From the NCBI GenBank assembly GCA_018650165.1, contig JABIGM010000061.1, positions 1 through 23,293 on the forward strand: DNA of 23,293 nt, in the 5' to 3' direction. The number at the start of each line of letters is the position of its first letter. The first letter of the stretch is position 1. This document shows, in pieces, positions 5,079-20,684 of this stretch. The stretch is from Methanobacteriota archaeon (GTDB lineage Archaea; Thermoplasmatota; Poseidoniia; Poseidoniales; Poseidoniaceae). The notes under the pieces were generated by a model. The model worked only from the letters and a program-made list of their open reading frames with translations. It had not been told where the DNA came from and did not search any database. Made by a program: the position numbers and the translations under genes.

Positions 5079-5630
5079 ATGGGAATCTGGTTAGCTAGTG
5101 CTTCACAGCGTCGCGCACAAATTCTTCAGGAACGATTTGGAGAGATTCATATCGAAGCACTTGGGGGCGTAGATGAGACGCCGCCACTCGGTTCTGTATC
5201 AAGTCAGGTGTTGACTATTTGTCGTCGGAAAGCGGACTTTGTAAAAACCAATCATGGCTATCAGGCAGTAATTGTTGCAGATACGATGGTCAATGACCCA
5301 GATGACCCAAATATGGCGTTGGGTAAGGCTACTAATGAATCCGAGGCAACATCTATGTTGGAAAGATTGTCTGGACGGCAACACAAAGTTTGGTCTGCTA
5401 CAGGCATCCAGATTTGTGGCGACTGGACTTTCTTTGTTGAATATGCTATGGTTGAATTTCAAGAATTAGAATCTAGCGTAATCAAAGAATTAATTCAGTC
5501 TGGTTCATGGGTTGGTAAAGCAGGATCATATGATTTGGCGGGTGCTATGGGCGAATATGCAAAACTTGTCGAAGGTGATGAATTGACAGTTCTAGGTTTT
5601 GCTCCAAGCGCATTAAGATTAGTCGTTTGA
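5079..5630 (+). CDS. maf: Maf-family nucleoside triphosphate pyrophosphatase
   Basis: IWLASASQRRAQIL, DET, RRKA, ADTMV, LGKA, LSGRQHKVWS, GKAGSY and VLGF match Maf motifs. Start moved to ATG 5079 because the longer ORF runs into the divergent ATPase gene. Confidence 0.9.
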   Translation: MGIWLASASQRRAQILQERFGEIHIEALGGVDETPPLGSVSSQVLTICRRKADFVKTNHGYQAVIVADTMVNDPDDPNMALGKATNESEATSMLERLSGRQHKVWSATGIQICGDWTFFVEYAMVEFQELESSVIKELIQSGSWVGKAGSYDLAGAMGEYAKLVEGDELTVLGFAPSALRLVV

Positions 5631-6950
5631 CAATTCTAAATCAAATCCAGGCCCTTGCTCGGGATGTGCTAAGTATTGGTCATAGTACAGTGGAATTTTA
5701 TGCCAGTCATCGATACTGAAGAAAATATCCTTGAGCCAATAAATTAGAATAAGTATGTAGGATAGAGCATAAAGGGCAATTCCATACCGAGGGTATTGTA
5801 TCAATATTTCACCGCTATACCAACTACTAAACATCGAATATATAGTGACCAATGTTCCTAGATTTATTGTCACTAAAATTAACCACTGAGATTTCCTTCT
5901 ATGGATTGAAACTCTCTTATGGTCATCATGCAAAAATGCTGCAAATCCCCATAATGCTTGGAAACTAAATCCAAAAATCAATATCCATCTGTAATAAGAC
6001 ATCATTGCTTTGGTTGTTTCAACATATTGCATAATTTCCATGTAAGATGCAATTCCAATAAATGGTAACCAGAATATTGCAGTTATGACCATCTTGCTAT
6101 AGGGATTACCCTGTTTGATCTTTGTTATAATTTGTTTAGGGTTTAACATAATGAAGATAAAGAAATATGGCAGTGAGGATAATGTTGCATTTATTCGCAT
6201 CGAAATGTCACCGCTATTTGATAGCGGTTCTGAAATTACTGCCAAGAGAAGTAGTATTGTGAAAATACCATAACTCTTTCCTGTATTACTGGGTTTGATA
6301 ATTTCCCAATCTAAACGTCGATTTATATGAGAAATAATAGTTGCAATAATTGCAAGGGGAATGAAGAAATCAAATACTAGTGCTTCTGAAATTTTCAACA
6401 CTCCATTAAAGTAGTCGCGTGCAATCCAACAAATTATTGTAACGATTCCCAAAATTGGCATGATTGCTCCTATCGAATAGGAGAACGCCCCCATCGTGTC
6501 CGATTCTATTTTTTTGCTTTTGAAAATAGTCATAGCAGGTGAAATAAGACAGATTAGAGATCCGCATAGTAAGGTTAAGCCGATTGTTGAAAGAGTATGG
6601 AACACTGCAATGTCCCTACTAACTATGCCGAACATTATGGCAAATTGGCCAGACATATTCATTGTGACATATATCCGCATTACAGTTTTTTCAAAGCCTG
6701 GTACGTCATAAATAAGGGGGAGAATGCTAAATCCAAGTCCTGCGATAATACACATCATCCATCCAAGACCGATTTGCATTCGGAGTACATACTGAATTTC
6801 TTCTAAATTTTTATCAAAAAAATCGGAACCGTATGTGCCGACCCAAACAGATGTAAAAAAGAATATAATTTGCATGATGATTGCGGCTAACATCAAATCG
6901 ATATATGTACCAACAGCCCAGTGCTGTTTATGGTGGATATCGGAATTCAT
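5619..6950 (-). CDS. Polytopic integral membrane protein of unknown function (about 12 TM segments)
   Basis: 443-aa ORF from ATG 6950 with regularly spaced hydrophobic segments and no recognisable catalytic motif. Confidence 0.75.
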   Translation of the reverse strand: MNSDIHHKQHWAVGTYIDLMLAAIIMQIIFFFTSVWVGTYGSDFFDKNLEEIQYVLRMQIGLGWMMCIIAGLGFSILPLIYDVPGFEKTVMRIYVTMNMSGQFAIMFGIVSRDIAVFHTLSTIGLTLLCGSLICLISPAMTIFKSKKIESDTMGAFSYSIGAIMPILGIVTIICWIARDYFNGVLKISEALVFDFFIPLAIIATIISHINRRLDWEIIKPSNTGKSYGIFTILLLLAVISEPLSNSGDISMRINATLSSLPYFFIFIMLNPKQIITKIKQGNPYSKMVITAIFWLPFIGIASYMEIMQYVETTKAMMSYYRWILIFGFSFQALWGFAAFLHDDHKRVSIHRRKSQWLILVTINLGTLVTIYSMFSSWYSGEILIQYPRYGIALYALSYILILIYWLKDIFFSIDDWHKIPLYYDQYLAHPEQGPGFDLELSND

Positions 6951-6973
6951 TGTGTATCCGAAACAGGGCTGGC

Positions 6974-6983
6974 ATATAGTTTC
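6974..6983 (-). promoter_or_regulatory. Possible BRE/TATA-like element for the membrane-protein gene
   Basis: Minus-strand GAAACTATAT lies 24-33 nt upstream of ATG 6950. A CTATAT hexamer sits at a similar distance upstream of ATG 14627 (14654-14659). Confidence 0.3.
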
Positions 6984-6999
6984 TAAGCCCACAATAACT

Positions 7000-7599
7000 T
7001 CAAATTAGTAATGGGGAAAGACCCAAATCATGTCGCGAAACATCGATTGATACTTTGTTACCGGGTAATAGGAGAAGTTTGTCTTCTGCATCTAGAGAAA
7101 ATATCGGGACATCAATTTCATCACCCATTTGTTTCAAACTTCGCCTGCAAGCATTCGTTTGGGTGTCCATATGGATTAGACCTGTAAGGTCAACAATTAC
7201 TGTATCACCTCTTCGAATTCGATCTTCGATTTGTCGCATAGGAAGGCGGTGCATTTTATCGGGCATCACATATCTAAGTGCTCTATCTGGATATCCAGAA
7301 GGAGGTGACGAATAATTAGAGAGGTCATGGAAGGCAATACCATCCGGTGTTACAGGTCCGACCCATCCATCTGGAATCTTAGAAGTGTGCCTAATCGGTG
7401 GAGGAATTGAGACTGGTTGTGGTGCCACTTCGATTGTAGAATTTGTTTCTAGAGGCGCATCATCTATTGGACTAACAATTGTCAATTGTTGGCCTGGTGC
7501 CTGTTCCGGCTTCTTAGCCTTCTTTTTGGAACGACTTACATTTTCTAAAGCTGGTGTTTCCGGGTCAGGGAAGCCAAAAAATTGCCAAAGTGTGCCCAT
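7000..7599 (-). CDS. sepF: Archaeal-type cell division protein SepF with N-terminal amphipathic segment and Pro-rich linker
   Basis: C-terminal domain QIEDRIRRGDTVIVDLTGL...RRSLKQMGDEIDVPIFSL...LLLLPGNKVSI fits the archaeal SepF core. N-terminal MGTLWQFFGF resembles a membrane-targeting sequence. ATG 7599 preferred over GTG 7608. Confidence 0.72.
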   Translation of the reverse strand: MGTLWQFFGFPDPETPALENVSRSKKKAKKPEQAPGQQLTIVSPIDDAPLETNSTIEVAPQPVSIPPPIRHTSKIPDGWVGPVTPDGIAFHDLSNYSSPPSGYPDRALRYVMPDKMHRLPMRQIEDRIRRGDTVIVDLTGLIHMDTQTNACRRSLKQMGDEIDVPIFSLDAEDKLLLLPGNKVSIDVSRHDLGLSPLLI

Positions 7600-7611
7600 T
7601 ATTTCCACTGC

Positions 7612-14627: not shown

Positions 14628-14778
14628 GAATTGATTATGCTAATGGCGGATAGATATAGATGAGGGCGGCACGGATTTTAGTAATTTTACATAAATAGAG
14701 TAGAAAACAAGCGATATCACCCGATTTCCCAATCATGTTGGGCAATAGACTCATGTTCATAGTCAGACTGGCCGTAAC

Positions 14779-15651
14779 ATGCGCTGGTACGCCTTCAATG
14801 GTGATGCTGATGGCATTTGTTCCATGGTTCAATGGGGTTTAGTGCATGGCATTGATGGGCAAACAGTGACTGGTGTCAAGCGAGATATCGAACTTCTTGA
14901 GAAAATAAACCCCGGGCCGGGAGATGAAATAATCGTAATGGATATCTCGCTGGCACGGAATCACCAAAGAGCTAGTCAAATGGTCCGAGATGGCATCAAA
15001 ATTACTTGGTTTGACCATCATTTACCCGGCGAGAAAATCGAAGGCGTTGAAACCAATATTAACACTGCAGCCGAAGTTTGTACTGCGCGTATTATCGAGT
15101 CTTATTTAGGGGTAGAATCCGATTGGGCCCAAGTCGCTCTCCACGGGGATGGTTTGTCTTCTTACTCGGCCAAACCTGAGTTCAAAGAATTGGGAGAACT
15201 TCTCAATTACAATGGATATGGGGCGGACCTTTCTGATTTACACTTTCATCCAAATGAATTATTGAATTTATGTCTTAAATCTGAAACCCCTAGTAATTTT
15301 ATGCTAACATCCACATTTCAAACATTGCAACAAGGTTTTGCTAACGATATGTCTCATGTGAATTCGATAGTTGAGGTTGAAGGAATATATTTGCTTCCCG
15401 ATGAAGCCTGGGCTCGTAGGGTAGTGGGGGTAATGGCTCATAGAATCAACTCAGAAGGCCCCGGTCCTCATGTAATTGCAATCGACAAAGGTGAAACTTT
15501 GCAAGTTTCATTGCGTGGACAGAGTGGCATAGGCGAGTTGTGTTCTCTGTTTGGAGGAGGCGGCCGCGCGACCGCAGGAGGCATTGATGCTCTCCCAAAG
15601 GGAGAGATACCAGCCTTGATGAATGAAGTCAATGTCCGAAGGTTTGCTTGA
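14779..15651 (+). CDS. DHH/DHHA1-family phosphoesterase, probable pAp (3'-phosphoadenosine 5'-phosphate) phosphatase
   Basis: FNGDADG (motif I), MDIS (motif II), WFDHH (motif III) and C-terminal GGGRATAGGI (DHHA1). The pAp substrate is inferred from its position directly before cysD-cysNC. Confidence 0.82.
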   Translation: MRWYAFNGDADGICSMVQWGLVHGIDGQTVTGVKRDIELLEKINPGPGDEIIVMDISLARNHQRASQMVRDGIKITWFDHHLPGEKIEGVETNINTAAEVCTARIIESYLGVESDWAQVALHGDGLSSYSAKPEFKELGELLNYNGYGADLSDLHFHPNELLNLCLKSETPSNFMLTSTFQTLQQGFANDMSHVNSIVEVEGIYLLPDEAWARRVVGVMAHRINSEGPGPHVIAIDKGETLQVSLRGQSGIGELCSLFGGGGRATAGGIDALPKGEIPALMNEVNVRRFA

Positions 15652-15660
15652 GGTGCTGTG

Positions 15661-16566
15661 ATGGAGGATAGAATGACTCATCTTCAGAGATTGGAAGCCG
15701 AGGCTATCCATATCATGAGAGAAGTTGTTGCAGAAGCGGAAAACCCCGTAATGCTCTATTCGATTGGTAAGGACTCATCGGTAATGTTACATCTTGCAAT
15801 GAAAGCTTTCCATCCCGCTAAGCCGCCATTCCCAATCATGCACATAGACACGATGTGGAAATTTTCAGAGATGATTGCGTTTAGGGAAAAGATAGCCGAA
15901 GAATTTGGTCTTGATTTAATTGTACACATCAACCCTGAAGGCAAAGAGATGGGAATGAACCCATTTATTCATGGTTCTTCAACTCATACAGATATGATGA
16001 AAACTCAAGGGCTAAAACAAGCATTGGATGCTCATGGGTTCGATGTTGCATTTGGTGGAGCGCGTAGAGATGAAGAAAAATCACGTGCAAAAGAGAGAAT
16101 CTTTTCTTTTAGAAACGAAAGTCACCACTGGGATCCCAAGCGTCAACGGCCTGAACTTTGGAATCTCTATAATTCAAAGAAAAACCAAGGCGAATCGATA
16201 CGTGTTTTCCCGCTATCAAATTGGACTGAATTAGATATTTGGCAATATATCCATCTCGAAAAGATTCCAATTGTACCACTTTATCTTGCCAAACCTCGGC
16301 CAGTTGTCGAGCGCGATGGCGTTCTGATTCTAGTGGATGATGATAGAATTCCAATGGCAGAAGGCGAAGAACCAATGATGAAAACAGTCAGGTTCCGTAC
16401 TCTTGGATGCTATCCATTAACCGGGGCAGTTGAGTCTGAGGCCGACACATTACCGGAAATCATTCAGGAAATGCTACTGACTACAACATCAGAACGTGAA
16501 GGCAGAGTTATCGATTTCGATAGCACAGCATCAATGGAAAAGAAGAAGCAAGAGGGGTATTTCTGA
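15661..16566 (+). CDS. cysD: Sulfate adenylyltransferase subunit 2 (CysD/NodP type)
   Basis: [67 protein letters not shown] and [11 protein letters not shown]. Start is ATG 15661 (GAGGTG upstream) or 15673 (GGAGG upstream). Confidence 0.97.
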
Positions 16567-18458
16567 TGGCACATATCAGCGACCTCATTGCCACTGACAT
16601 AGAATCATACCTTGCTGCCCATGAGCAAAAGGAGTTGTTGCGATTCATTACTTGTGGTTCAGTCGATGATGGGAAATCCACTTTGATTGGCCGTATGCTG
16701 TATGAATCACACATGCTTTTTGATGATCATTTAGCAGCACTTGAGGCGGATTCAAAGCGAGTTGGAACACAAGATGGAGAGATTGATTTCGCCCTACTTG
16801 TTGATGGATTAGCCGCTGAGCGTGAACAAGGAATTACAATCGATGTTGCTTACAGATTCTTTTCTACCGAGAAAAGAAAGTACATTGTGGCAGATACACC
16901 CGGCCACGAAGAATATACGCGAAATATGGCGACAGGAGCATCCACTGCAGATGTGGCAATTATCCTAGTTGATGCAAGTCAAGGTATTCTAACACAAACA
17001 CGTCGCCATTCGTTTATCGTTTCAATGGTTGGAGTTAAGAGAATTATTTTAGCTGTTAACAAATTAGATTTAGTTGATTATTCTCAAGAAGTATTTGATT
17101 CAATACTTGCAGATTACAGTAGATTTGCCGATGATGCCCTCGCACTAGATGCGATAACAGCAGTACCAATTTCTGCGCTAAAAGGCGATAATATAGTTGG
17201 TCCAAGTGAAAATACTCCTTGGTATAATGGACCTTCAATTATGGATTACCTCGAGACTGTAGAAATCGCCTCAACATCACAAAAGCGCTCGTTTAGAATG
17301 CCTGTTCAATGGGTGAATAGACCAAACCGTGAATTCCGTGGATTCGCTGGAATTATCGGTAGTGGAACCATCTCTCCTGGAGATAAAGTCAGGGTCCTGC
17401 CCAGCGGCACAGAATCTGTTATTGATAGAATTGTAACTTGGGAAGGCGACCTTGAGGTTGCAGGCGCAGGTCGTTCAGTGACACTTACTCTAGCGGATGA
17501 AATAGATATTTCACGCGGTGACATCATTACAACTGCTGATAATCCATGTGGCAGTGCAGACCAATTCCAAACTCGAATATTATGGATGGATGAAAATGCA
17601 ATGATGCCAGGTCGTCAGTATTTGTTCAAGGCTAATACACAAACCACTTCTATGACACTTGGGCAACTCAAGCATAGAATCGATGTCAATACATTGGAAG
17701 AGTTACCTACAAAGGTACTGGAAATGAACGAAATAGGAGTTTGTAATATTTCATTATCAAGCCGAATCGCATTCGATTCTTATGATGAAGATCCAACTAT
17801 GGGCGGTTTCATTATTGTAGATCGTATGACCAACAATACAGTTGGAATGGGACTGATTGATTTTGCATTGAGGCGAGCGGATAACATCCATTGGCAATCA
17901 ATGGATGTAACCAAAGAAAGCCGGGCACAGCAAAAGAGTCAACGGCCACGTTTGGTTTGGTTTACTGGGCTGTCCGGTTCAGGGAAATCCTCGATAGCAA
18001 ATATTTTGGAAAAGAAGTTACAAGCAATGGGTCGCCATACAATCAGTCTTGATGGTGACAATATCCGCCATGGCCTGAACCGAGACTTAGGCTTCACGAA
18101 GGCAGACCGTGTTGAGAATATCCGTCGTGTTGGTGAAACTTCGAAATTGATGATTGATGCAGGGCTGATATGTATTTCATCATTCATTTCACCCTTTGAA
18201 TCAGAACGGCAAATGGTTCGCTCACTAGTGGGTGAAGAAGAATTTATCGAAGTATTCATCGATACCCCCCTAGAGGTTTGTGAACAAAGAGATGTCAAAG
18301 GCCTCTACGCGAAGGCCCGTGCTGGCGAGTTACCAAACTTTACAGGAATATCTAGTCCGTTCGAAAGCCCAGTAGATCCTGAAATTAGAATTGACACTAC
18401 TCAAGTAAGTGCCGAGGAAGCGGCTGACCAAATTATCGATTATTTGAGCCGCTCTTGA
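16566..18458 (+). CDS. cysNC: Bifunctional sulfate adenylyltransferase subunit 1 / adenylyl-sulfate kinase (CysNC/NodQ type)
   Basis: GTPase motifs GSVDDGKST, EQGITID, DTPGH, NKLD and SAL. C-terminal APS kinase WFTGLSGSGKS, LDGDNIRHGL, FISPF and RDVKGLY. Start overlaps the cysD stop (TGATG). Confidence 0.97.
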   Translation: MAHISDLIATDIESYLAAHEQKELLRFITCGSVDDGKSTLIGRMLYESHMLFDDHLAALEADSKRVGTQDGEIDFALLVDGLAAEREQGITIDVAYRFFSTEKRKYIVADTPGHEEYTRNMATGASTADVAIILVDASQGILTQTRRHSFIVSMVGVKRIILAVNKLDLVDYSQEVFDSILADYSRFADDALALDAITAVPISALKGDNIVGPSENTPWYNGPSIMDYLETVEIASTSQKRSFRMPVQWVNRPNREFRGFAGIIGSGTISPGDKVRVLPSGTESVIDRIVTWEGDLEVAGAGRSVTLTLADEIDISRGDIITTADNPCGSADQFQTRILWMDENAMMPGRQYLFKANTQTTSMTLGQLKHRIDVNTLEELPTKVLEMNEIGVCNISLSSRIAFDSYDEDPTMGGFIIVDRMTNNTVGMGLIDFALRRADNIHWQSMDVTKESRAQQKSQRPRLVWFTGLSGSGKSSIANILEKKLQAMGRHTISLDGDNIRHGLNRDLGFTKADRVENIRRVGETSKLMIDAGLICISSFISPFESERQMVRSLVGEEEFIEVFIDTPLEVCEQRDVKGLYAKARAGELPNFTGISSPFESPVDPEIRIDTTQVSAEEAADQIIDYLSRS

Positions 18459-19480
18459 ATTCGCTTTGCGACTTCATCCCATTGAAGAGCATCTCGTAAC
18501 TTTATCATTGATTCACGAGATGAATCCAAATTCTTTTGTCCGATTGCTGAAATACTTGCTACGATATCATCGACACTTCTGCCGCGCATCTTAATTGCAC
18601 CAGCAATATCATCGAATATTGAAATTGGAGTTACAGCTAATGGAACTCCAGCGGCAACACCCATTCTAACTGCGCCCGACGCCGACTCCTTGGTATTTTG
18701 ATATGGAAATACTAGCAATTCACACTTTGACAGAGTAGATATTGCAACATCATCATCTAAGAAATCTGTAACCAAACGGACACGTCCAGTTAGGCCTTTA
18801 TTTTGGATAAGGGAGTTGACTTTTTTCTCCATATTTCCACTGCCTTCTCTTGTTGCACACAGCAATAACAATTCATCCCAACCGGGGAGTCTATCGAATG
18901 CTTCAATCAATTCCAACTGCCCTTTGTGGGGTAACAGGAATCCAAAGGTCCCCATAACTCTACCTTCCATGGGCAGAGATTCCGCAGAATCAGAGGGTGG
19001 AGGATATATTCCATGTGGAATCATTACTACATTTTCTTCAATTCCAAGAGTTCTTAGATTTTCAACATCTGCTTCAGTATGCACCATTACAGTTGAGCAT
19101 GATTTCAGACCATCTATCGCCTTCTCAATCCGCTTGCTCGGGAATACAAGAGAACGGTCTCGTGTATTGTGCATCGTAATGAAGACTTTTACTCCCATCT
19201 CCGATAATTTCAGCAACAACTCATTGAGATATGAAAATCTTAGCAAACCAGGTTGGTGCTGAATTACCATTTGTTGAATACCCTTAGCAGCAACTTGAGC
19301 AATAATGCCTTCAAATGCATTTGAGTCTCTACCCCAACATGGAATCGCACCCTCAACATCACCTTCACCAGATTGGCACATGACGATTACATCATCCATC
19401 TGTTCAACTAGAAAGCGAGAATATGTTGCAATACCACACCTGATATCCCAAGTGCTAATCCAGCCAATCATTATTTTCAC
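18440..19480 (-). CDS. GT-B fold glycosyltransferase, GT4-like
   Basis: WDIRCGIATYS at the N-terminus, HGIYP, TFGFLLPHKGQLELIEAF and VFPYQNTKESASGAVRMG...VTPISIFDD. Start is GTG 19480 (overlapping the upstream stop) or ATG 19471. Confidence 0.88.
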   Translation of the reverse strand: MKIMIGWISTWDIRCGIATYSRFLVEQMDDVIVMCQSGEGDVEGAIPCWGRDSNAFEGIIAQVAAKGIQQMVIQHQPGLLRFSYLNELLLKLSEMGVKVFITMHNTRDRSLVFPSKRIEKAIDGLKSCSTVMVHTEADVENLRTLGIEENVVMIPHGIYPPPSDSAESLPMEGRVMGTFGFLLPHKGQLELIEAFDRLPGWDELLLLCATREGSGNMEKKVNSLIQNKGLTGRVRLVTDFLDDDVAISTLSKCELLVFPYQNTKESASGAVRMGVAAGVPLAVTPISIFDDIAGAIKMRGRSVDDIVASISAIGQKNLDSSRESMIKLRDALQWDEVAKRIQERLK

Positions 19481-20058
19481 TCCTTGAAATCGAAATCAGA
19501 GTACTTGTCAAGAATTGTCTTTACATCACTCGATCTCGGAGAATATTTTTTCTTTCTTTCGCGTAATGAGAAGCCATCCATATCGACTTCAACATCAATT
19601 GAGTTTAGTGCCTCAAGAGCCTCTTGGTTAGTATAGGGGTAGCGTAAGAATGCGACTTTATCGATATTGGATTGTTTTGCATTACGGAAACTTTCGAGGA
19701 ACATAGAAAATCCAACAGGGTCATTGGGAAATGATTGCAAAAACCTCGAAAGAGGAATTTCTGGGGCGTTAATCCCAAGGCACATCTTCGCCGCATTGGC
19801 CGTTAGAAATTTACGACGGTCCATTGAACGAATCGCATCAAGATAATCTCCATGAATTACCAAAATTGGTTTTCCAACACTCTTTCCCGGATGTTGCTTA
19901 TGGCAAATCAGGCCATAATTATCAGGTCGCGTCCTAATTCCTTGAGATTCCATATGGTCACAAAGCGCATTAGAGGCTACACCGCCATGCGATACAACCC
20001 AGATATCGATACTATTTGCATCGACCTCACTAGGTCCTAGTGGCTGCATTGAGATCAC
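19477..20058 (-). CDS. Hypothetical protein with degenerate sulfotransferase-like (P-loop) motif order
   Basis: IWVVSHGGVASNALCDHM (PSB-loop-like), ICHKQHP, ILVIHGDYLDAIRSM (3'-PB-like strand-helix) and FLRY. The CDS is likely real from its tight overlaps on both sides; the function is uncertain. Alternative start ATG 20049. Confidence 0.5.
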   Translation of the reverse strand: MISMQPLGPSEVDANSIDIWVVSHGGVASNALCDHMESQGIRTRPDNYGLICHKQHPGKSVGKPILVIHGDYLDAIRSMDRRKFLTANAAKMCLGINAPEIPLSRFLQSFPNDPVGFSMFLESFRNAKQSNIDKVAFLRYPYTNQEALEALNSIDVEVDMDGFSLRERKKKYSPRSSDVKTILDKYSDFDFKE

Positions 20059-20684
20059 AGCAGGTCTGCTAACTCATCTTGGATAATCTGTACAGCCTCA
20101 AGAATCTCGTCCTTGTGGCGAGCACCGGTGATTACCATCTTTCCAGATCCGAAGATCAAACAGACTACCTTAGGATAGTCTAATCGATAAATCAATCCAG
20201 GGAATTGCTCTGGCTCGTACTCAACCTTATCGAAAGGCAAGTGGAAGGTTAGGTTGTTGAGGTTCAACTTGCGAGGTAGTCCTGCGAGTGGGTCTCCTTC
20301 TTTCAATTCTTGAGTATCCATTCTCTGGGTACCTTCGTAATCTTCGGGATAGTGTAGAGCATAGGTTGCAACCATGTTCTGAACTTCAATTTCGACATCC
20401 TTTAGGTCCCAAGTTGTGATTCCAGCAGAACGTAGATCATTGATCATTCGCTCGATACCGGTGTGAATGTTATCCTCATTCTTTCCACCAGTACATACAG
20501 CACGTCCGGAACGGAACATTAGGATAGCAAGTTTAGGTTCTGCTACACGGTATACAACCCCAGGAAACTGCTCAGGTTCATATTCACAATTCAATTGAAT
20601 TGCGATATCTGGGAGATCAAGCTCTTCCGCTACTCGAGTGCTGGCAACGACATTTACTACAGTCAAACGGTCCTCATCGTTCAT
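20055..20684 (-). CDS. tbp: TATA-box-binding protein (archaeal), with an insertion in the second repeat
   Basis: Two direct repeats NVVAS...EYEPEQFPGVVYR...FRSG...TG and NMVAT...EYEPEQFPGLIYR...FGSGK...TGAR. Confidence 0.97.
   Translation of the reverse strand: MNDEDRLTVVNVVASTRVAEELDLPDIAIQLNCEYEPEQFPGVVYRVAEPKLAILMFRSGRAVCTGGKNEDNIHTGIERMINDLRSAGITTWDLKDVEIEVQNMVATYALHYPEDYEGTQRMDTQELKEGDPLAGLPRKLNLNNLTFHLPFDKVEYEPEQFPGLIYRLDYPKVVCLIFGSGKMVITGARHKDEILEAVQIIQDELADLL

Follow-up and report, generated by a model that had tools for sequence, protein, structure and literature searches.

In the NodPQ/NodH and mycobacterial CysDNC/Stf/CysQ systems, the synthesis of 3'-phosphoadenosine 5'-phosphosulfate (PAPS) is dedicated to sulfated glycoconjugates and is accompanied by a dedicated phosphatase for 3'-phosphoadenosine 5'-phosphate (pAp). 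A locus that may serve a comparable role was analysed here in a 23,293-nt stretch of DNA (referred to below as the window; contig JABIGM010000061.1 of NCBI GenBank assembly GCA_018650165.1, designated C47 of genome G000) from an archaeon of the family Poseidoniaceae (Marine Group IIa, MGIIa), the genome of which is 80 % complete. Five ORFs located between positions 14779 and 20058 encode a DHH/DHHA1 phosphoesterase, CysD, CysNC, a glycosyltransferase family 4 (GT4)-like enzyme and a 193-aa protein, designated here h193, which represents a candidate PAPS-dependent sulfotransferase. As in the systems mentioned above, CysD and a CysN–CysC fusion would supply PAPS for a glycoconjugate sulfotransferase, whereas the present locus is archaeal, encodes a DHH-type rather than a CysQ-type pAp phosphatase, and has a candidate sulfotransferase of about 190 aa without the lysine of the 5'-phosphosulfate-binding (PSB) loop and the arginine of the 3'-phosphate-binding (PB) motif.

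Among archaea, the pAp phosphatase MtPAPP of Methanothermococcus thermolithotrophicus hydrolyses pAp specifically, and its gene is located beside those for ATP sulfurylase and adenosine 5'-phosphosulfate (APS) kinase (Jespersen et al. 2023, PMC10322725). In Marine Group IIb (MGIIb), cysDN/cysC have been read as a potential for assimilatory sulfate reduction, with the additional remark that PAPS feeds sulfotransferases, and the same genes were reported absent from the MGIIa genera L1 and M (Orellana et al. 2019, PMC6864105). According to a review, archaeal carbohydrate sulfotransferases still await characterisation (PMC11625862).

The five-gene block is read here as a dedicated, non-assimilatory cytoplasmic sulfation module, with a probability of roughly 0.7. 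Re-listing of the ORFs returned all five at exactly the coordinates and on the strands given by an earlier, sequence-only reading of the window. The proposal of that reading that the block makes PAPS, via CysD and CysNC, was borne out by NCBIfam equivalog scores far above the respective cut-offs. CysD (sulfate adenylyltransferase small subunit, 302 aa; 15658–16566, + strand) was shown to match NF009214 over residues 4–302 at 542.7 bits (cut-off 413) and the Pfam domain PAPS_reduct at an E value of 1e-55. CysNC (a fusion of the sulfate adenylyltransferase GTPase subunit and APS kinase, 630 aa; 16566–18458, + strand) matched NF004035 at 1016.6 bits (cut-off 715) and was shown by Pfam to comprise GTP_EFTU, GTP-eEF1A_C and C-terminal APS_kinase domains. 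Judged by these family scores, the identities of both proteins are unambiguous. A true CysD and an APS kinase were encoded by all eight genomes of the genus that were sampled, whereas an APS kinase was found in none of 53 other Poseidoniaceae genomes, and cysD in only one of these (G005, in divergent form).

None of the large ORFs of the window was found to encode a PAPS reductase, sulfite reductase or cysteine synthase domain, in agreement with the earlier reading, which had cautioned that genes for sulfate assimilation could lie elsewhere in the genome. A search for cysH and sir across the genus, as that reading had suggested, returned neither a PAPS/APS reductase (eight genomes) nor a sulfite reductase (26 genomes). 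In the window's own genome and seven congeners (86–93 % complete), PF01507 matches besides CysD were limited to weak PP-loop matches of the kind typical of tRNA-thiolation enzymes. The NIR_SIR family, representing sirohaem sulfite reductases and covering Fsr and Dsr, was detected in none of 26 genomes of the genus (54–93 % complete), while the same search was positive for 11 of 14 reference genomes used as a control. AprA-like flavoproteins were searched for because PAPS reduction in M. thermolithotrophicus is carried out by an AprAB-like enzyme (PMC10322725); none was found in the own genome, in which the two strong FAD_binding_2 matches represented SdhA (with SdhB adjacent) and NadB (L-aspartate oxidase). 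In three cysDNC-bearing MGIIb genomes, PF01507 identified CysD alone, with no second gene of the PAPS_reduct family. As the reductive genes were not detected in the genus, the caveat can largely be set aside, and the assimilatory alternative appears to be largely excluded. A sulfoquinovose-type route, with the GT4-like protein in an SqdX-like role, was also considered, and was set aside because it depends on sulfite and PAPS/APS reductases were not found; no search was made for UDP-sulfoquinovose synthase.

The DHH protein (290 aa; 14779–15651, + strand) is a probable pAp phosphatase of the MtPAPP type, as indicated by its predicted fold and its motifs. At the sequence level, it scored 26.7 bits against Pfam DHH, just below the cut-off, and a phmmer search against PDB sequences returned only Staphylococcus aureus NrnA (E value of 0.12), with MtPAPP (PDB 8A8K) not retrieved at E ≤ 1. 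Its AlphaFold2 (AF2) model (pLDDT 93.5), in turn, placed 8A8K at ranks 1 and 2 of a Foldseek search (E value of 2e-13; template modelling (TM) scores of 0.73/0.67), followed by RecJ-Cdc45, PggH, NrnA and Rv2837c at TM scores of ≤ 0.60. D9-x-D11, D55, D79-H80-H81, G-D124-G and GGGGR were invariant in 15 orthologues, and D9, D11, D55, D124, H80 and H81 correspond, by motif order, to D8, D10, D57, D127, H76 and H77 of MtPAPP. The two proteins thus share a two-domain DHH/DHHA1 fold, the Mn ligands and a position beside genes for PAPS synthesis (ATP sulfurylase and APS kinase). They differ in length (290 versus about 315 aa), in carrying Asn7 in place of His6 and GGGGR in place of GGGH, and in their host, since the lineage of the window lacks a detectable reductive pathway, for which reason the DHH enzyme would serve sulfotransfer rather than assimilation.

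The genomic distribution and position of the DHH gene are consistent with this assignment. The 290-aa protein was present in all eight genomes of the genus and in none of the 53 other genomes of the family, i.e. in the same pattern as the APS kinase. No protein of the Inositol_P family (IMPase/FBPase/CysQ) was found in the own, 80 % complete genome, while the family was present in all 14 control genomes. In MGIIb (Thalassarchaeaceae), the gene upstream of cysD was shown to encode a CysQ-type bisphosphate nucleotidase (TIGR01331, 224 bits), and because MGIIb has cysQ-cysD-cysNC where the genus has dhh-cysD-cysNC, the DHH gene fills the CysQ slot. The MGIIb locus thus resembles that of the window in having a pAp phosphatase gene directly upstream of closely related cysD and cysNC genes, and differs in encoding CysQ instead of a DHH protein, in its genomic site (o184...pfd-SRP) and in having neither a GT4 nor an h193 gene nearby. 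We read this arrangement as a probable replacement of CysQ, in this genus, by a non-orthologous enzyme of the MtPAPP type. The removal of pAp by the block, which had been proposed from sequence, therefore gains support from the best fold match, the retained metal ligands and the operon slot.

The CysD and CysNC proteins of the MGIIb operon (L031–L033, from G108, G120 and G126) are 80–85 % and 71–85 % identical, respectively, to those of the window. As cysDNC is missing from most other MGIIa genera and occupies a different site in MGIIb, with a different pAp phosphatase, this high identity suggests a transfer of cysDNC between the two families. The divergent set of G005, a member of another MGIIa genus, consists of cysN (40 %) and cysD (49 %) genes (L034; G005:C110, 4440–7312) followed by a second PAPS_reduct-family gene (E value of 6e-36), possibly a real CysH; this may represent a separate, possibly assimilatory, sulfate-activation set. 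As a further observation on sulfate activation, a 287-aa fusion of an APS kinase with a cytidylyl/NMN-adenylyltransferase-like domain (PF01467, weak) was identified in two MGIIa genomes (L024:8173–9036, + strand; L038:1084–1932, − strand), where it adjoins CysQ at the o184...pfd-SRP site that harbours cysD-cysNC in MGIIb. CysD was not found in these two genomes, and the small nucleotidyltransferase domain of the fusion may be an unrecognised ATP sulfurylase.

The candidate sulfotransferase h193 (19477–20058, − strand) was shown to have no Pfam or NCBIfam match, for Pfam even at an E value of 5. Its 82 close relatives are all nameless and derive from Poseidoniaceae-type sources; more distant relatives number about 80 representatives, some of which carry N-terminal extensions, and the clusters of ten distant relatives yielded no names. 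Nine distant or fused relatives yielded, at Pfam E ≤ 5, only EF-hand or low-complexity N-terminal extensions and no sulfotransferase or other catalytic domain, while one of 53 relatives matched PF00685 (E value of 9e-4). A search of PDB sequences with a hidden Markov model (HMM) of the family returned nothing meaningful.

The predicted structure of h193 (AF2, pLDDT 89.8) appears to have a minimal sulfotransferase-like fold. All of the matches at ranks 1–48 of a Foldseek search against the PDB were PAPS sulfotransferases, with E values of 0.009–0.14 and TM scores of about 0.4, none of which constitutes a strong match. A comparison by VIA-align, which is independent of Foldseek and covered 48,161 representative chains, likewise placed only sulfotransferases at ranks 1–23 (138–175 residues aligned), with Z scores of 5.6–7.2, where values below 8 can mean a common arrangement. 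These sulfotransferases span NDST, TPST, SULT, Stf, StaL and HS 2-O/3-O/6-O enzymes, and were followed by P-loop folds resembling nucleoside monophosphate (NMP) kinases (Z ≤ 5.4, about 110 residues aligned). In a protein language-model (ESM) search, 20 of 30 matches were named, all of them PF00685 or PF13469, with scores of 0.93–0.96. The outcome that the sequence-only reading had listed as a refutation, a non-sulfotransferase fold for 19477–20058, did not occur, since sulfotransferases represent the best fold matches.

The h193 family conserves S23-H-G-G-V-[GA]-S-N, C52-H53, G70-D71, S78 and R82, as well as N88, K91, D113-P114, R168 and Y186. The order of these elements is that of neighbouring canonical enzymes, i.e. 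a PSB loop, a histidine and then the 3'-PB strand-helix, and Ser78, at the 3'-phosphate position, is conserved in 50 of 53 family members. The best-matching PAPS sulfotransferases (e.g. NDST1 9F6Z, TPST 3AP3, StaL 2OV8 and Stf0-like 3RNL), which align over 150–170 of the 193 residues, are similarly arranged as strand, P-loop-like loop, helix, histidine and strand-(G)D...S helix. Compared with the Sulfotransfer_1/2/3 superfamily, h193 is about 60–100 residues shorter and lacks the canonical Lys and Arg; the conserved N88, K91, R82 and R168 might substitute for these. Walker-A GK[ST] was not found in h193, which makes a kinase role unlikely. No canonical sulfotransferase was found in the own, 80 % complete genome.

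Within the genus, h193 and canonical sulfotransferases tend to alternate: among 26 genomes, 13 encode h193 only, six a canonical sulfotransferase only (one of which holds an h193 remnant), two both and five neither (raw Fisher P = 0.04, a descriptive value only, as the genomes are related). In G053, from which h193 is missing at the TBP–GT4 site, a copy of h193 with 57 % identity was located on a separate contig, where it converges with a bona fide Sulfotransfer_1/3 gene. The site is one of recent gain or loss of the sulfotransferase-like gene, and because h193 is missing or degraded there in G053, G060 and G151, the constant core of the locus is GT4-cysNC-cysD-dhh. The five-gene block put forward earlier therefore stands as five real genes, yet not as a fixed unit, being a four-gene core plus a variable sulfotransferase-like gene.

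The co-occurrence of the GT4/h193 pair with PAPS genes, considered by the earlier reading as a check, was confirmed at other Poseidoniaceae loci. Locus L024 has the order APS-kinase fusion, LonN, h193, GT4, Sulfotransfer_1/3 and CysQ (opposite strand), while L026 has h193, GT4, two Sulfotransfer_2 genes, Sulfotransfer_1/3 and an EamA transporter, in a genome that also encodes CysQ beside the APS-kinase fusion. Overall, a true APS kinase was detected in four of five genomes with a divergent h193, the fifth being a fragmentary 1.2-Mb metagenome-assembled genome (MAG), and h193 was detected in none of the 53 family genomes without an APS kinase. That 1.2-Mb MAG, for which the search for an APS kinase was negative, encodes an N-terminally extended h193 of 279 aa, followed by GT4, a phosphotransferase of the APH family and a protein with a MOSC domain (L027:2847–5720, L028:8061–11413), with no sulfotransferase or PAPS gene nearby. 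Beyond archaea, three contigs of giant viruses (Nucleocytoviricota) were shown to carry h193-like genes inside glycan-synthesis clusters (L052:4890–9137, L053:2642–8767, L049:4723–7421), which comprise GT4-like, GT32 (DXD) and GT47 transferases, GlmS, ManC and phosphomannomutase (PMM); of the six viral loci considered, the remaining three (L048, L050 and L051) showed no informative glycan genes near the h193-like gene. These contexts link the family of h193 with the synthesis of glycans and, as far as archaea are concerned, with PAPS metabolism as well.

The partner of h193 is a GT-B glycosyltransferase of the GT4-like type (346 aa; 18440–19480, − strand), which matched Pfam Glycos_transf_1 at 29.1 bits (cut-off 26.4) and, in its N-terminal part, scored 23.5 bits against Glyco_transf_4, below the cut-off of 28.5. 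Its family is narrow, consisting of 209 homologues, all from Poseidoniaceae-type sources and nearly all carrying a precomputed PF00534 annotation, and no PDB sequence relative was found at E ≤ 1. GT4 is paired with h193 at 27 of 29 species loci.

Taken together, the module is envisaged to operate as follows. Sulfate would enter the cell and be converted by CysD/CysN, with ATP and GTP, into APS, which the CysC domain would convert into PAPS. With PAPS as donor, h193 would then sulfate a sugar of a lipid-linked or soluble glycoconjugate, assembled in the cytoplasm with the help of the adjacent GT4-like enzyme, whereas in some relatives a canonical sulfotransferase would carry out this step. The putative active site of h193 would comprise the P-loop-like SHGGV[AG]SN loop, His53 as a candidate base and Ser78 at the 3'-phosphate position. 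The inhibitory pAp released would be hydrolysed by the DHH enzyme to AMP and phosphate. Strong family and fold evidence argues for the PAPS synthesis and pAp hydrolysis steps, while sulfotransfer by h193 is the step that we infer, its suggestive indications being fold and genomic context. The five proteins were predicted to have no transmembrane segments. The acceptor would most likely be a lipid-linked glycan or a glycolipid assembled on the cytoplasmic face, and general archaeal glycan biology, together with the neighbouring surface-protein genes, suggests that the product may be displayed on the cell surface; these neighbours do not add independent evidence, because they are conserved within a single genus only.

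Several observations weigh against the interpretation of the locus as a sulfation module with h193 as its catalyst. Synteny of the whole block does not extend beyond a single genus and may be a matter of inheritance only, the own genome is incomplete, and no clear sulfate transporter was found in it (no SulP, and only a weak DASS-type match on C32). Nothing links the product to the neighbouring surface proteins. With regard to h193, the best Z score of 7.2 falls within the range that VIA-align designates as 'common'. The basic residue of the 5'-PSB loop (Lys/Arg in PKxGTT-like loops) is missing, position 24 being His in 34 and Ser in nine of 53 relatives and never the canonical Lys; the 3'-PB Arg, which in the canonical motif precedes the Ser by eight residues, is also missing, its position being occupied by Gly70 in 48 of 53, preceded by His69, as compared with the motifs REPVSRTxS and RNPWDMAVS of neighbouring canonical sulfotransferases. 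Alignment by hhalign of wide (A2) and close (A1) h193 profiles with canonical sulfotransferases gave probabilities below 1 %, which is weak negative evidence, as the reference profiles (A3 for Sulfotransfer_1/3 and A4 for Sulfotransfer_2) consisted of only three to four sequences each. Furthermore, h193 is dispensable: it is absent between TBP and GT4 in G053 (L039:8052–8108) and G060 (L041:7929–7939), and is reduced to a 55-aa remnant in G151 (L042:7923–8081), while G060 (86 % complete) exhibits neither h193 nor a canonical sulfotransferase. Of the earlier description of h193 as sulfotransferase-like, the fold therefore received suggestive support, whereas two PAPS-binding basic residues and profile-level homology were not recovered. 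As the PSB Lys, the 3'-PB Arg and a significant profile match are missing, membership of the sulfotransferase superfamily is not established; that h193 is itself the sulfotransferase is plausible and slightly favoured here, despite its departure from two sequence features of the superfamily.

These points bear most directly on an explanation in which the sulfation module is real and h193 is not its catalyst, acting instead as a PAPS/pAp-binding accessory or regulator, or as another group transferase or kinase on the GT4 product, with the true sulfotransferase being another, variable or unrecognised gene. Besides the missing Lys and Arg and the lack of profile homology, it would account for h193 occurring beside canonical sulfotransferases, rather than in their place, at L024, L025 and L026, for its association with GT4 and an APH-type kinase, without sulfotransferases, at L027/L028, and for P-loop kinase folds being the next-best structural matches. 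It is nevertheless considered rather unlikely, as the own genome and 12 congeners with h193 make PAPS while no canonical sulfotransferase was found in them, as the absence of Walker-A GK[ST] speaks against a kinase, as the aligned region is about 50 residues longer for sulfotransferases than for kinases, and as h193 and canonical sulfotransferases tend to alternate in the genus. A much smaller probability is assigned to the adjacency being inherited chance, with GT4/h193 belonging to a TBP/mevalonate-kinase unit concerned with unrelated glycosylation and PAPS being used elsewhere. The opposite orientation of GT4/h193, their translational overlap with TBP, RNA contigs that bridge TBP and h193, and the confinement of the full arrangement to one genus are all compatible with such a scenario, which is contradicted by other genera, where h193-GT4 is located, in varied order, beside genes for an APS kinase, for CysQ and for as many as three canonical sulfotransferases, and by the presence of a true APS kinase in four of the five h193-bearing genomes checked (the fifth being a fragmentary 1.2-Mb MAG), with h193 found in none of 53 family genomes without one.

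Similarly improbable is an assimilatory cysDNC-dhh operon that employs unrecognised reductases, with GT4/h193 as unrelated neighbours. In its favour, PAPS reduction too releases pAp, a DHH pAp phosphatase of this type takes part in sulfate assimilation by atypical reductases in M. thermolithotrophicus (PMC10322725), cysDN/cysC of MGIIb were interpreted as assimilatory (PMC6864105), and the genomes are incomplete MAGs. Against this stand the failure to find a PF01507 reductase in eight genomes of the genus or in the three MGIIb genomes with cysDNC, the NIR_SIR result (0 of 26), the AprA-like protein not found in the own genome, and the finding that a second strong PAPS_reduct-family gene occurs in only one genome of the family, G005, whose cysDN set is a different and divergent one.

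The genes of the locus are tightly packed, as had been described and as was verified by reading the junction sequences. A gap of 6 nt separates dhh and cysD, cysD and cysNC overlap by 1 nt, and cysNC and GT4 are convergent, with 3' ends that overlap by 19 nt. The TBP/h193 and h193/GT4 pairs overlap by 4 nt each, the former by GTGA. Most homologues of h193 and GT4 start at an internal ATG, and the probable starts are accordingly ATG 20049 (190 aa) and ATG 19471 (343 aa), respectively. The divergent intergenic region of 151 bp between the surface-protein gene and dhh (14628–14778) is AT-rich with TATA-like stretches, and is presumed from its sequence to hold the promoter of dhh-cysD-cysNC. The flanks are as initially reported, with PKD/CARDB surface proteins upstream, three of which are large PKD/CARDB/TSP3 proteins with C-terminal anchors, and TBP and mevalonate kinase downstream. 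The gene order FeS-MvK-TBP-h193-GT4-cysNC-cysD-dhh-surface proteins was observed in 22 species of the genus, which is counted as one evolutionary observation.

The TBP gene (20055–20684, − strand; Pfam TBP E value of 1.9e-52), which provides context only, is co-directional with h193. Short contigs from RNA libraries of seawater metatranscriptomes (three runs from two studies) span 19643–20226 across the TBP/h193 junction with a single mismatch, and further contigs match stretches of cysD and cysNC perfectly. None lies over dhh or GT4, which is no evidence of absence; as such contigs prove neither transcription nor a single transcript, they represent a weak hint of expression only. In combination with the TBP/h193 overlap, the bridging contigs indicate that this basal transcription factor may be co-transcribed with glycan-modifying genes. 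The TBP protein carries an insertion in repeat 2, which the sequence-only reading had also noted. Elsewhere in the window, two ORFs between a Maf-like gene and the PKD surface-protein genes (5619–6992, − strand, 457 aa; 7000–7608, − strand, 202 aa) had no Pfam match at E ≤ 0.01, and the sepF label previously given to the smaller one was not confirmed by Pfam.

CysDNC and the DHH pAp phosphatase are of known kinds; what is new is the candidate family of minimal sulfotransferases, together with the reinterpretation of PAPS synthesis in Poseidoniales. In its fullest form, the proposal is that the h193 family constitutes a new minimal (about 190 aa) class of carbohydrate sulfotransferases, found in Marine Group II archaea, marine bacteria and giant viruses, that binds PAPS without the PSB Lys and 3'-PB Arg, and that Poseidoniales (MGIIa-K1-like and MGIIb) make PAPS for sulfated envelope glycoconjugates rather than for assimilation; this combined claim is advanced tentatively, at somewhat less than even odds. 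Marine Group II archaea rank with the most abundant of the uncultured plankton, and their envelopes are almost uncharted. If the proposal is true, metabolic reconstructions should not count cysDN/cysC of Poseidoniales as 'assimilatory sulfate reduction', and a nameless family that occurs in archaea, bacteria and giant viruses would acquire a function open to testing, namely that of a very small sulfotransferase whose PAPS site is unusual, with h193 as a concrete candidate for an archaeal carbohydrate sulfotransferase. One MGIIa genus, and probably others, would then place sulfate on a glycolipid or glycan, with effects on cell-surface charge, virus attachment, grazing and the ocean pool of sulfated organic matter.

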